Below, piece after piece: positions 13,718 to 16,057 of a stretch of 64,000 bases of DNA (positions are counted from its first letter, which is position 1; each line of letters begins with the position of its first letter). The DNA is taken from NCBI GenBank assembly GCA_022820805.1, contig JAJEEV010000013.1:80967-144966 (forward strand), given 5' to 3'. The stretch is from Acidimicrobiia bacterium. Its GTDB lineage: Bacteria > Actinomycetota > Acidimicrobiia > Acidimicrobiales > Aldehydirespiratoraceae. A program made the translations under genes and the position numbers. The notes under the pieces were generated by a model. The model ran no database searches, was not told the DNA's origin, and saw only the letters and a program-made list of their open reading frames with translations.

Positions 13718-14716
13718 TTGCAGACAGGAGACAAGACATTGGACACGTCCACGCTGACCGGCCTGTACCGCGACATGTGGCTGATACGGGCCTTCGAGCA
13801 GGGGCTCGAGCGGGAGTTCGAGAAGGGCAACGTGCCCGGGATGCTGCACACCGGACTGGGCCAGGAGGCCACCCAGGCCGCGCTGGCCTGGCACCTCAAG
13901 GCCACCGACGCCTTCTTTCCCGACCACCGCTGCCACGGCATCAACGCTCTGGCCCAGCACCGCCACGGAGGCGACGGCGAGCGGGTCATGGCCGAGCTGT
14001 TCGGCAAGGCCACCGGGGTCTGCAGCGGCAAGGGAGGCAGCCTGCACTCCGCCGACCCGGCCGTCGGCAACTTCGGCGACAACGCGGTGGAGGGCTCCTA
14101 CATGGCCACCGTGCTCGGCGTGGCCCTGGCGGCCAAGATGCGGGGCCAGCCCAATGTGGCCTGCGCCATCATCGGCGACGGCACCGTCGGGCGGGGCGAG
14201 TTCCACGAGAGCCTCAACATGGCGGCCATCTGGGACCTGCCCGTGCTCTACGCCTGCGTCAACAACGGCTACGCCATCTCCATGCCGGTGGGCGAAGGCC
14301 ACGCCTCCGCCGACATCGTCGACATGGTGCAGGGCTACGGCTTCGAGTCCCGCCAACTCGACGGGAACGACATCGTCGAGGCGTGGACGGTCGTCGGTGA
14401 GGCCGTCGAGCACATCCGCTCCGGCGCGGGCCCCTACTTCCTGGAGTTCAAGACCTGGCGGTGGCAGGGGATCTTCGCCGGGGAGTTCCGGCCCGAGGCC
14501 GAGGTCAAGTACTGGAAGGAGGAGCGCGACCCGATCATGCTGGCCGGCGAGGCGCTGGCCGGCCGGGGCGTGGACCAGGCCGAACTCGACGCCATCGAGC
14601 GCGAGACCACGGACCTGATCGAGGAGTGGATCGCCTTCGCCATGGAGAGCCCCGCACCCGACCCGGTCAAGGCCACCGCCGACGTGTACGTGGGCTGGGA
14701 GGTGGACTCGCGATGA
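13718..14716 (+). CDS. Thiamine-diphosphate-dependent 2-oxoacid/acetoin dehydrogenase E1 alpha subunit
   Basis: YRDMWLIRAFE near the N-terminus. TPP-binding region IIGDGTVGRGEFHESLNMAAIWDLPVLYACVNNGYA. The track start is TTG at 13718; the TTG at 13739 has a better AGGAGA RBS. Confidence 0.9.
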   Translation: MQTGDKTLDTSTLTGLYRDMWLIRAFEQGLEREFEKGNVPGMLHTGLGQEATQAALAWHLKATDAFFPDHRCHGINALAQHRHGGDGERVMAELFGKATGVCSGKGGSLHSADPAVGNFGDNAVEGSYMATVLGVALAAKMRGQPNVACAIIGDGTVGRGEFHESLNMAAIWDLPVLYACVNNGYAISMPVGEGHASADIVDMVQGYGFESRQLDGNDIVEAWTVVGEAVEHIRSGAGPYFLEFKTWRWQGIFAGEFRPEAEVKYWKEERDPIMLAGEALAGRGVDQAELDAIERETTDLIEEWIAFAMESPAPDPVKATADVYVGWEVDSR

Positions 14717-15756
14717 CCGCGGCCGACACCGCCGCCCCGAAGCGGGCGGCCCGCACTCCCCGCAAGGCCCGGGACCGGGTCCGCAAGGTCGCCTTCACCC
14801 GGGCCCTCAACGATGCGCTGGACCTGGCCATGTCCAAGCACGACGAGATGTTCGTCATCGGCGAGGACATCGCCGAGATGGGCGGCGACTTCGGCGTCAC
14901 CAAGGGTCTGCTGGCCAAGTACGGGCCCGAGCGGGTGCGAGACACGCCCCTGTCGGAGGCGGCCATCATCGGCACCTGCGCGGGCGCGGCCATGGTCGGC
15001 ATGCGCCCGGTGGCCGAGATCATGTTCGCCGACTTCATCGCCGAGTGCTACGACCAGGTCGTCAACAACGTGGCCAAGATGCACTACATGTTCGACGGGC
15101 AGTTCAAGGCGCCGCTGGTGATCCGCACCGCCTGCGGGGGCGGGTTCGGCGGCGGGCCGCACCACTCCCAGAGCGTGGAGGGCTGGTTCCTGAACGTGCC
15201 CGGCATCGTGATCGTGGCCCCGTCCAACCCGGTCGACGCCAAGGGCCTGCTGCTGGCATCGATCGACAGCGACGACCCGGTCCTGTTCCTGGAGCACAAG
15301 GCCCTGTACCGCAGCCGGGCCGAGGTGCCCCCCGAGTACTACACCACCCCGCTGGGGCAGGCTGCCATCGCCCGCGAGGGCAGCGACGTGACCGTGGTCG
15401 CGGCCATGCGGATGGTGCCCATGGCGCTGGAGGCCGCCGAAGAGGCCGCCGACGCCGGCGTCGCGGTGGAGGTCGTGGACCTCAGGACCATCCGGCCCTA
15501 CGACGCCGAGACGGTGCTGGCCTCGGCAGCCAAGACCGGCCGGGTGGTGGTGGCCAACGAGGCGCCCAAGATCGGCGGGCTCGGCGCCGAGCTCAGCGCT
15601 CGCATCAGCGAGGAGTGCTTCAGCGACCTGAAGGGACCGGTGGTGCGCGTCGACGGCCTCGACACCCCCATCCCCTTCTCGGTGCCCCTGGAGGACGTGG
15701 TCCTGCCCGACGCGCAGGACATCGCGGCCGCCGTCAGCACCGCAGCCCAGTACTGA
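14713..15756 (+). CDS. 2-oxoacid/acetoin dehydrogenase E1 beta subunit
   Basis: The ATG at 14713 overlaps the E1-alpha stop (ATGA). VFVIGEDIAEMGGDFGVTKGLLAKYGPERVRDTPLSEAAIIG and a C-terminal transketolase-like domain. The 5' part of track ORF 14461.. is out of context. Confidence 0.92.
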   Translation: MTAADTAAPKRAARTPRKARDRVRKVAFTRALNDALDLAMSKHDEMFVIGEDIAEMGGDFGVTKGLLAKYGPERVRDTPLSEAAIIGTCAGAAMVGMRPVAEIMFADFIAECYDQVVNNVAKMHYMFDGQFKAPLVIRTACGGGFGGGPHHSQSVEGWFLNVPGIVIVAPSNPVDAKGLLLASIDSDDPVLFLEHKALYRSRAEVPPEYYTTPLGQAAIAREGSDVTVVAAMRMVPMALEAAEEAADAGVAVEVVDLRTIRPYDAETVLASAAKTGRVVVANEAPKIGGLGAELSARISEECFSDLKGPVVRVDGLDTPIPFSVPLEDVVLPDAQDIAAAVSTAAQY

Positions 15757-15787
15757 CCCAGAACACGAAGACCATTAGGAGGGCCAG

Positions 15788-16057
15788 ATGGCCACCGATG
15801 TGATCCTGCCCAAGTGGGGCCTGACCATGGAGGACGGCACCGTCGTCGCGTGGTATGTGGACGAGGGCGACCATGTAGTGGAGGGCGAAGTGATCGCCGA
15901 AGTGGAGACCGAGAAGGTGGAGAACGAGCTGGAAGCACCCTGCGCCGGAGTGGTGGCCCGGATACTCGTGGACGAGGATGAGACCGTCGATGTGGGCACC
16001 GTGCTGGCGGTGATCGCCGGCAACGAGGCCGAGGCCGCAGCCATCGCTGGGGGTTGA
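15788..16057 (+). CDS. Free-standing lipoyl-attachment domain protein (E2 N-terminal domain only)
   Basis: 89 aa, AGGAGGG RBS. Lipoyl-lysine context VIAEVETEKVENELEAP (Lys codon 15914-15916). The stop at 16055-16057 is immediately overlapped by the next gene. No acyltransferase core follows. Confidence 0.85.
   Translation: MATDVILPKWGLTMEDGTVVAWYVDEGDHVVEGEVIAEVETEKVENELEAPCAGVVARILVDEDETVDVGTVLAVIAGNEAEAAAIAGG

Follow-up and report, generated by a model that had tools for sequence, protein, structure and literature searches.

A stand-alone lipoyl carrier encoded with a heterotetramer-type E1 in Acidimicrobiia, and the loss of its separate E2 core

How can an E1 of the 2-oxoacid dehydrogenase type operate when its gene cluster supplies a lipoyl domain and no acyltransferase to carry it? 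Substrate channelling is classically illustrated with the 2-oxoacid dehydrogenases, whose lipoyl arms are tethered to an E2 core, and the question is posed by a 64,000-nucleotide (nt) stretch of an Acidimicrobiia bacterium (contig JAJEEV010000013.1, positions 80,967 to 144,966; hereafter the window, meaning this stretch at its full length). In the window, genes for the alpha and beta subunits of an E1 (together E1ab) are followed by a gene for a protein of 89 amino acids (aa) that is a lipoyl domain and nothing else, and then by the gene of a short-chain dehydrogenase/reductase (SDR). We find that gene loss accounts for the missing E2 core and that, in this uncharacterised system, the carrier was free from the outset.

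Because the window has a G+C content of about 70%, genes were called by third-position GC (GC3), and their coordinates are collected in Table 1. A compact run of genes on the plus strand extends from a Rieske oxygenase to a luciferase-like oxidoreductase (11772–19995), and within it E1ab, the free lipoyl carrier and the downstream genes are translationally coupled. The lipoyl open reading frame (ORF) is preceded by an AGGAGG ribosome-binding site 6 nt upstream and ends in a TGA codon (16055–16057) whose last base is also the first base of the SDR start codon (TGATG). Its product is highly acidic (isoelectric point (pI) 4.05), and Lys43 (codon AAG, 15914–15916) lies in the motif ETEKV, which corresponds to the [DE]K[AVI] hairpin of lipoyl domains and predicts lipoylation of this residue. 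Among the NCBIfam models the best match was the AcoC-type E2 of acetoin dehydrogenase, in its N-terminal part (E 1.3e-26). Since E2-type models (approximately 1e-26 to 1e-15) outscored biotin carrier models (1e-9 or weaker) and the MKM motif is absent, the domain was assigned as lipoyl rather than biotinyl; it matches the PF00364 type only and not the GcvH fold (PF01597). The ORF ends at 89 aa with the SDR gene next, leaving no linkers and no subunit-binding domain by which the lipoyl domain could be joined to an E2 core.

This short form is not confined to the window. A search of 5.8 billion proteins recovered stand-alone lipoyl proteins of 89–101 aa in at least 120 protein clusters at 73–99% identity, the named members of which are Acidimicrobiaceae or Actinobacteria metagenome-assembled genomes (MAGs), and the stand-alone protein was present at 41 independent genome loci, closed chromosomes included. 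The lipoyl lysine and the N-terminal segment VILPKWGLTME were invariant in 63 of 63 sequences.

The two genes upstream encode a heterotetramer-type E1 dependent on thiamine diphosphate (ThDP), with an alpha subunit (PF00676) and a beta subunit (PF02779 and PF02780). E1 alpha has an intact ThDP motif (GDG-x26-NN, residues 153–183) and is 78% identical to its orthologue in a related locus, L002 (individual loci of the comparison are cited by L numbers); its nearest NCBIfam model is TIGR03182, the E1 alpha of pyruvate dehydrogenase (PDH), with a score under the cut-off. E1 beta passes NF006667 (326.8 bits, cut-off 321), and its best match in the PDB is 1um9_B (E 2e-95). The N-terminus of E1 beta (14713–14790) carries a strongly basic 18-aa arm, MTAADTAAPKRAARTPRKARDRVRK, with seven Lys/Arg and a pI of 12; such an arm, of 17–58 aa with 6–12 Lys/Arg, is found in the crown of the clade lacking the core, and is short or absent in most lineages that contain the core and in the other lineages that lack it.

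No E2 catalytic core (PF00198) was found in Pfam scans of the approximately 55 GC3-supported genes across the 64 kb, and a six-frame tblastn search of the window with the core of a relative gave no match at E≤1e-3. Dihydrolipoamide dehydrogenase (E3) was likewise not detected in the window by the two approaches used for it, Pfam on called genes and a motif scan: the sole Pyr_redox matches are those of a protein similar to flavin-containing monooxygenases (FMO-like; 60876–62222), and the redox-disulfide motif of E3 occurs in no ORF of at least 50 codons. The array is in no way unusual in lacking an E3, which the annotated related loci do not encode either. The motif DHRxxDG occurs once, in an ORF that is out of frame (62784–63533) and otherwise without similarity to E2, and this was taken as chance. 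On these points the first-pass annotation of this DNA holds: its account of E1 genes followed by an 89-aa lipoyl-only protein was borne out to the base, lysine codon included, and it was right that the window contains neither E2 core nor E3. It had also argued that no core was lost to a frameshift near the lipoyl stop codon, which agrees with the complete SDR gene overlapping that stop and with the conservation of the 89–101-aa form across assemblies.

The origin of this arrangement became clear from relatives. Eighty reference-genome loci were retrieved with the gene of a methenyl-tetrahydromethanopterin (H4MPT) cyclohydrolase homologue (Mch), which lies downstream in the window, as anchor, and E1 alpha, E1 beta, lipoyl protein, E2 core, SDR and Mch were scored in them by tblastn. 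In L002–L004 the genes are ordered E1 alpha, E1 beta, lipoyl protein (89 aa, 81% identical to that of the window), a separate 240-aa PF00198 protein, SDR, Mch, SDR, luciferase-like oxidoreductase (LLM) and SDR, and the order E1 alpha–E1 beta–lipoyl–core–SDR–Mch recurs in Ilumatobacteraceae and other Acidimicrobiia as well as in Caldilineaceae and Anaerolineales of the Chloroflexota. An E2 core is thus encoded with E1 in, for example, L002, L039 and L085 and not in the window, where the first SDR gene occupies the place of the SDR that follows the core in relatives. All 25 scored loci with both genes, in two phyla, have lipoyl protein and core as separate, unfused ORFs, with the core immediately after the lipoyl gene. 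The stand-alone cores are 229–240 aa long, and PF00198 spans residues 18–230 of the L002 core; they therefore contain neither a lipoyl nor a peripheral-subunit-binding domain. Among the best 120 of 974 core homologues, all are single-domain proteins (158–267 aa) and the catalytic motif DHRxx[DN]G is conserved in 119, so that acyl transfer matters where the core gene exists.

Because carrier and core are always separate genes where both are present, the free carrier and the docking-less core are ancestral to the array. The split E2 is accordingly an ancestral design and not a peculiarity of the window, and the free carrier originally fed an ordinary, unfused E2. The first-pass annotation had taken the free carrier to imply an unusual acceptor, an idea that is not supported, given the separate and ordinary E2 core next to it in the 25 loci. 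A literature search found no account of a naturally split E2 of this kind and nothing directly relevant on stand-alone lipoyl domains or under the name of the genus; the lipoyl carrier described in a Pelobacter genome paper is GcvH-like and unrelated.

The window belongs to the clade 'Candidatus Aldehydirespirator' (Acidimicrobiales), which is represented among the loci by many closed chromosomes. The window has no core gene, and neither has any of the 38 other loci of this clade that were scored; the gene is also missing from L060/L062 and L084, while L074–L076 (Chloroflexota) have full-length E1 alpha and beta, SDR and Mch genes without those for lipoyl protein and core. Fitch parsimony on a neighbour-joining tree of E1 beta and Mch placed the core at the root and required at least four independent core losses and a single loss of the lipoyl gene, together with the core; three of the four core-losing lineages thus retained the lipoyl gene. 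The lipoyl stop overlaps the SDR start in L040, L060/L062 and L084 and shares one base with it in the window, and no credible remnant of a core was seen in the spacers between lipoyl and SDR genes, including the longer ones of the basal loci. None of the best 120 of the 974 core homologues lies on a complete chromosome of the core-less type, while the lipoyl protein was found on many of these, which argues that the core was lost and not moved. Together, gene order and phylogeny show that the core was cleanly deleted in the ancestor of the window clade and that the state of the window is a derived gene loss.

Several features of the region around the deletion were recorded. In the spacers of L023, L026, L034 and L038 (70–120 nt) the opening stretch of the SDR gene, approximately 20 nt, recurs once or twice (in L038, GTGAGCCGCTTCGAG is repeated), and these repeats may have been left behind by the recombination event in which the core was lost. 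In five sister loci the E1 beta and lipoyl genes are separated by a gene for an NCS2 permease of the xanthine/uracil type (PF00860 E 6e-45) that is extended at its C-terminus; in the four that were examined directly it lies on the minus strand (L006, 6964–8850; L007, 6870–8705; L056, 7086–8858; L025, 5603–6820), and L025 also has a second copy of the lipoyl gene (7664–7921). The notion that such inserts encode a replacement acyltransferase was rejected, since they comprise this permease, on the other strand, or DUF488 (L012). The C-terminal tail of the lipoyl protein (16010–16054) is conserved as DEAEAAxIRG and reads AIAGG in the window. An [ILVF]R motif is present in this tail in 22 of 24 lipoyl proteins from loci with a core and in 8 of 39 from loci without one (Fisher p 4e-8, uncorrected for phylogeny), and it may have served in docking to the core that was lost.

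Selection on the array genes was assessed by pairwise Nei-Gojobori dN/dS in approximately 40 genomes of the core-less clade (median dS 0.35–0.5) and in core-keeping Acidimicrobiia. In the core-less clade the ratio was 0.083 for the lipoyl gene, 0.137 for Mch, 0.138 for E1 beta, 0.154 for the SDR and 0.180 for E1 alpha, against 0.14, 0.13, 0.11, 0.15 and 0.12, respectively, in the core-keeping Acidimicrobiia, where the E2 core itself, absent from the other group, gave 0.27. The lipoyl gene is thus the most tightly constrained where the core is missing, and the core is the least constrained where it is kept; to judge from these ratios, the carrier clearly still functions where no cognate core accompanies it. 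The lipoyl gene and both E1 genes are under strong purifying selection in that clade. It is extremely improbable that the E1 and lipoyl genes are a functionless, decaying remnant or that the short ORF arose by a frameshift or assembly error. A visibly decayed copy of the array does exist in L001 (8022–11835), which has only 162 aa of E1 alpha, no E1 beta, 65 aa of Mch and an insertion of two DUF488 genes, with the lipoyl ORF still intact (101 aa, 73% identity). In the window clade, by contrast, every array gene has a dN/dS of 0.08–0.18 and the ThDP motif is intact, and the strong constraint on the lipoyl gene, with its invariant lysine, excludes a relic. The artefact was rejected because the same ORF architecture is kept throughout the protein clusters and genome loci counted above, which come from independent assemblies.

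We favour, with slightly better than even confidence, the reading that the array encodes a dissociated member of the acetoin/2-oxoacid dehydrogenases, in which the lipoyl domain is a diffusible protein in place of a swinging arm of E2, and in which E1 loads its cognate free carrier while housekeeping E2 and E3 act in trans. In such a system, E1ab would decarboxylate a 2-oxoacid or cleave an acyloin and reductively acylate Lys43 of the cognate carrier; the acyl-dihydrolipoyl carrier would diffuse to a housekeeping E2 core, where the acyl group would be transferred to CoA, and housekeeping dihydrolipoamide dehydrogenase would reoxidise the carrier. E2 and E3 are permissive towards lipoyl domains, accepting non-cognate ones and even free dihydrolipoamide, which makes the core the most replaceable component. 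The carrier is the least replaceable one, as lipoyl domains are recognised specifically by the cognate E1 (PMC6270654), and the evolutionary pattern fits these properties. L074–L076 keep E1ab without carrier or core, and trans components can therefore serve this E1; together with the lack of an E3 gene in the annotated related loci, this makes complementation in trans plausible.

A different fate for the acyl group is offered by the upstream end of the window, where a polyketide synthase (PKS) fragment is followed by genes for a discrete acyl carrier protein (ACP) and a phosphopantetheinyl transferase (PPTase). The free carrier might hand its acyl or hydroxyalkyl group to an acceptor other than E2, either this ACP, in a C2 loading reaction like those of the Qnc and Scl systems, or an enzyme of the array. 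The discrete ACP noted in the first-pass annotation is indeed present. It and the PPTase are encoded on the same strand as E1 alpha, approximately 8 kb upstream of it, and are syntenic in about 17 close relatives; in L005 only an amidase gene and a gap of approximately 0.9 kb separate the ACP/PPTase genes from the Rieske-E1 genes. Cassettes that combine E1, lipoyl domain and ACP have precedent in QncN/QncL/QncM and SclQ1-4, which, in a secondary-metabolite setting, load glycolicacyl units by an E1-type ThDP enzyme and a lipoyl domain with an ACP and, nearby, a PPTase (PMC6335953), and the remodelling of the array in the window clade after core loss also counts for a non-E2 acceptor. However, transfer in the Qnc and Scl systems depends on a lipoyl domain that is fused to an acyltransferase (PMC6335953), and the window has no acyltransferase; their ACP gene also lies inside the cassette, whereas that of the window is at a distance and is not conserved with the array. 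The ACP gene sits directly between PKS and PPTase genes in a self-sufficient unit, and the discrete ACP belongs to this neighbouring PKS unit. It is not near the array in any locus that contains the core, and no ACP occurs within 10 kb in the basal core-less loci (L033–L040, L052) or in L060, L062 and L084, all of which nonetheless keep the lipoyl gene. Moreover, the genomes that share the synteny of ACP and array are congeneric, and their close relationship may be all that it reflects. The hand-off to the ACP that the first-pass annotation had suggested is consequently weak, and we consider a non-E2 acceptor very unlikely.

Outside its E1 part the array is more unusual still. Mch exceeds the cut-off of the equivalog model TIGR03120 (275 bits, cut-off 228.8) and matches Methanopyrus kandleri Mch (PDB 1qlm, E 6.5e-72), and its conserved E189 aligns with the catalytic E186 of the Archaeoglobus fulgidus enzyme, for which wild-type and E186Q structures are available; it therefore has both the sequence and the catalytic Glu of an Mch. 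The Pfam families of an H4MPT-dependent one-carbon (C1) pathway (Fae, Mtd, Ftr/Fhc) were not found in the window or in annotated related loci, and the sole H4MPT-like neighbour of the Mch gene is the Mer-like LLM, which among NCBIfam families comes closest to the F420-dependent methylene-H4MPT reductases (NF002619, E 1.9e-52, under the cut-off; next family 1e-23). Array-linked amidohydrolases were considered as FwdA/FhcA-like proteins of a genuine H4MPT C1 pathway and rejected, being SsnA-, dihydropyrimidinase- or cytosine-deaminase-like. The Mch homologue and the F420-type LLM are conserved with E1ab in Acidimicrobiia and Chloroflexota alike; a search of the literature on Mch in Actinobacteria or Chloroflexi found nothing directly relevant. 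L085 has a second, divergent Mch paralogue (18417–19385; 34% identity to that of the window) beside aldo-keto reductase and FGGY kinase genes, with the main array on the same contig, which is of Chloroflexota type.

In relatives that contain the core, the neighbouring genes encode a dihydropyrimidinase/HyuA-type enzyme (TIGR02033, 520 bits, cut-off 393), a YgeY-family hydrolase (392 bits, cut-off 321), SsnA-like aminohydrolases, PALP enzymes and YqeB/YqeC. In 16 of 24 such loci an SsnA-like gene is found no more than 10 kb from the array, and among the 12 Chloroflexota loci YgeY-like genes lie within this distance in 10 and HyuA-type genes in 4. These are homologues of the reductive uric acid pathway (XdhD, YgfK, SsnA, HyuA, YgeY/YgeW, YgeX), and because the array adjoins SsnA, HyuA and YgeY genes in other lineages, it probably belongs to the catabolism of N-heterocycles of the purine type, a context that the xanthine-type NCS2 permease gene of the five sister loci also supports. 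The reductive pathway for urate (2,8-dioxopurine), characterised in 2025, has as its end product pyruvate (10.1101/2025.05.19.654654; 10.1101/2025.04.24.650524), a plausible substrate for E1. SsnA is a marker of the reductive purine pathway, and Chloroflexota lack YgfK and have a putative F420-dependent luciferase-family gene beside SsnA (Li et al., 2025), to which the LLM of the array corresponds. E1, lipoyl and Mch genes are not mentioned by Li et al. (2025), and the published pathway, unlike the array, has no such components.

From this context a sequence of steps can be proposed, in which the F420-type LLM would reduce a purine-like ring with F420H2, the Mch-fold enzyme would open the ring by hydrolysing the resulting cyclic amidine, and the SDR/E1/carrier module would oxidise the keto-acid or acyloin fragment so released. 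A fuller version, which we regard as possible but unlikely, is an undescribed F420-dependent route for degrading purine-like N-heterocycles in aerobic Acidimicrobiia and Chloroflexota, in which a recruited Mch-fold enzyme opens a reduced imidazoline ring and E1 works with a diffusible, H-protein-like carrier. In the core-less lineages this pair would do without a dedicated acyltransferase, and the carrier would either shuttle reducing equivalents or donate the acyl group to an enzyme other than E2. Quite unlikely, in our estimation, is the alternative that no acyl group is transferred to CoA at all and that the carrier serves mainly as a two-electron acceptor or shuttle, with the acyl group hydrolysed or the reductant routed to an F420-linked step. 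Retention of the lipoyl gene in three of four lineages that lost the core counts for such a shuttle, as does the relaxed constraint on the core even where present; the array is, moreover, tied to an LLM of the reductase type, and the reductive purine pathway of relatives consumes reductant and ends in pyruvate. On the other side, no candidate for a thioesterase or a lipoyl:F420 oxidoreductase was identified in the array, the catalytic residues kept in 119 of 120 cores count against the idea, and we know of no precedent for it.

Several observations weigh against the trans-acting housekeeping E2 and E3 that we favour. E1 alpha falls under every NCBIfam equivalog cut-off, and the housekeeping E2, E3 and lipoate ligase of the organism are assumed partners. 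The dN/dS values and the parsimony reconstruction rest on a neighbour-joining tree and on pairwise estimates from related genomes. Constraint on the lipoyl gene, the basic arm of E1 beta and the relaxed [ILVF]R motif could point instead to a new partner. In addition, SsnA, HyuA and YgeY genes are found in none of 35 core-less loci, and the window, too, lacks the set of SsnA with HyuA, YgeY and YgeX that marks a reductive purine cluster. The core-less clade has also gained, upstream of the array, a Rieske oxygenase, a flavin reductase and an amidase of the AtzE family, the first two of which are syntenic in close relatives and missing from the basal core-less loci. Since the cluster was remodelled in this way, with purine genes absent and new genes upstream, the core-less clade of the window may use a different substrate from its relatives and may also have come to pass the acyl group elsewhere.

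How the dissociated dehydrogenase that we favour relates to known systems can be stated for each in turn. With acetoin dehydrogenase (AcoA/AcoB/AcoC, AcoL) and with the heterotetrameric-E1 forms of PDH and branched-chain 2-oxoacid dehydrogenase (BCKDH), the array shares a ThDP-dependent E1 pair and an AcoC-like lipoyl domain; its adjacent SDR recalls butanediol/acetoin dehydrogenases, and the PF00198 core of relatives has the DHRxxDG motif. Unlike AcoABC, PDH and BCKDH, the array encodes its lipoyl domain as a separate 89-aa protein, and the core of relatives has neither a lipoyl nor a subunit-binding domain; the window has no core, the cluster has no E3, and the genes are mixed with Mch-like and Mer-like ones.

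Partial precedents for a lipoyl domain detached from its catalytic partners come from three directions. The actinobacterial OdhA lacks a lipoyl domain and relies on those of E2p. It is a fused E1o/E2o enzyme within a hybrid complex of PDH and 2-oxoglutarate dehydrogenase (ODH) (PMC10415282, PMC10581250), a natural case, in the same phylum, in which catalytic cores and lipoyl domains on different polypeptides cooperate. There, however, the lipoyl domains are fused to an E2 (AceF), whereas that of the array is free and the core of the window is missing. The glycine-cleavage H protein is a small, free lipoylated carrier that visits separate P, T and L proteins and does not swing within a complex (10.1101/2021.03.28.437365). 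Here the likeness is functional only: GcvH (PF01597) is loaded by the pyridoxal phosphate (PLP)-dependent P protein, whereas the carrier of the array (PF00364) is served by a ThDP-dependent E1. Finally, the PDH E1 beta of alphaproteobacteria (NF008854) also has a lipoyl domain outside E2, and the window protein matches residues 1–86 of this model (E 9.1e-18); in those proteins, however, the domain is part of E1 beta itself, and a normal E2 exists besides, while that of the window is free.

The array is therefore of interest as a widespread natural system, spread over two phyla and hundreds of metagenomic clusters, with a free lipoyl arm and a docking-less core in which the core has repeatedly been discarded and the carrier kept, and its natural parts make the need for tethering and for cognate recognition at each step directly testable. 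With its Mch and Mer-like homologues in aerobic, F420-producing bacteria, it also provides an entry point to the F420 variant of the reductive purine pathway, which was flagged in 2025 without being explored. The lineage of the window appears to be associated with marine sponges, as judged from MAG names and one comparative-genomics paper mentioning the genus, and the pathway may matter for the turnover of nitrogen-rich metabolites in sponges.

Table 1. Genes of the array and of its upstream neighbourhood in the window.
Feature	Coordinates	Strand	Evidence and remarks
PKS fragment (methyltransferase, enoylreductase, ketoreductase, ACP and ketosynthase domains; MT-ER-KR-ACP-KS)	3–5333		Runs off the window start
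Discrete ACP	5415–5660		PP-binding, 37.6 bits (cut-off 20.8), E 2.7e-9
PPTase	5745–6443		Follows ACP
PhyH dioxygenase	6440–7369		Follows PPTase
AtzE-family amidase	9296–10888	+	PF01425 E 7.5e-99; NF006631 (AtzE family) E 4.2e-88, under cut-off; start uncertain; clade-specific
Rieske oxygenase alpha subunit	11772–12941	+	Pfam; best NCBIfam match GbcA-type; clade-specific, directly upstream of array
Flavin reductase	12974–13651	+	Pfam; clade-specific, directly upstream of E1 alpha
E1 alpha, ThDP-binding	13718–14716	+	PF00676 E 1.5e-55; alternative start 13739
E1 beta	14713–15756	+	PF02779 and PF02780; start overlaps E1 alpha stop as ATGA
Stand-alone lipoyl carrier protein, 89 aa	15788–16057	+	PF00364 E 2.4e-21
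SDR oxidoreductase, 259 aa, complete	16057–16836	+	PF13561 E 4.9e-62; 70% identity to the L002 SDR behind its E2 core
Mch homologue (methenyl-H4MPT cyclohydrolase)	16869–17828	+	PF02289 E 1e-100
Small ORF, 84 aa	17977–18231	+	Predicted: one transmembrane helix and a coiled coil; between Mch gene and second SDR
Second SDR	18228–18950	+	PF00106 E 1.1e-46; 56% identity to SDR3 of L002
Luciferase-like oxidoreductase (LLM), probably F420-dependent, Mer-related	18985–19995	+	PF00296 E 6.6e-48

Among the remaining genes, the small ORF between Mch and the second SDR gave no significant family match in a Pfam search; it is conserved and specific to the clade, and in L006, L007, L011, L017 and L022 it has been duplicated in tandem two or three times. 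A HisD-like gene and a bicupin gene are found downstream in the window. A scan of 9000–22500 for promoters and terminators found nothing and is uninformative for this organism. Further downstream, positions 33816–48218 encode a Bmp-type (nucleoside-like) ABC transporter, a molybdenum hydroxylase of the xanthine dehydrogenase (XDH) family with a fused FAD domain (39013–42956) and, at 42953–48218, an AMP-ligase together with hydantoinase B/A; these genes suggest N-heterocycle catabolism in the neighbourhood of the array.

The PKS unit at the start of the window recalls small PKS units reported from sponge symbionts. Two distinct Rieske systems are present, an alpha/beta pair (7413–8741 and 8768–9262) and the alpha subunit at 11772–12941 with its flavin reductase, and the amidase gene lies between them. 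Towards the other end of the window, a fusion of DUF1989 and aminomethyltransferase (54047–56440) is followed by succinyl-CoA-ligase-like subunits (56479–58535) and an HpcH/malyl-CoA-lyase-like gene (58598–59590); the same region (54047–63999) also contains a class-V aminotransferase, FMO-like and FAD monooxygenases and the start of a malate synthase, and may be a C1/C2 assimilation or glyoxylate module.

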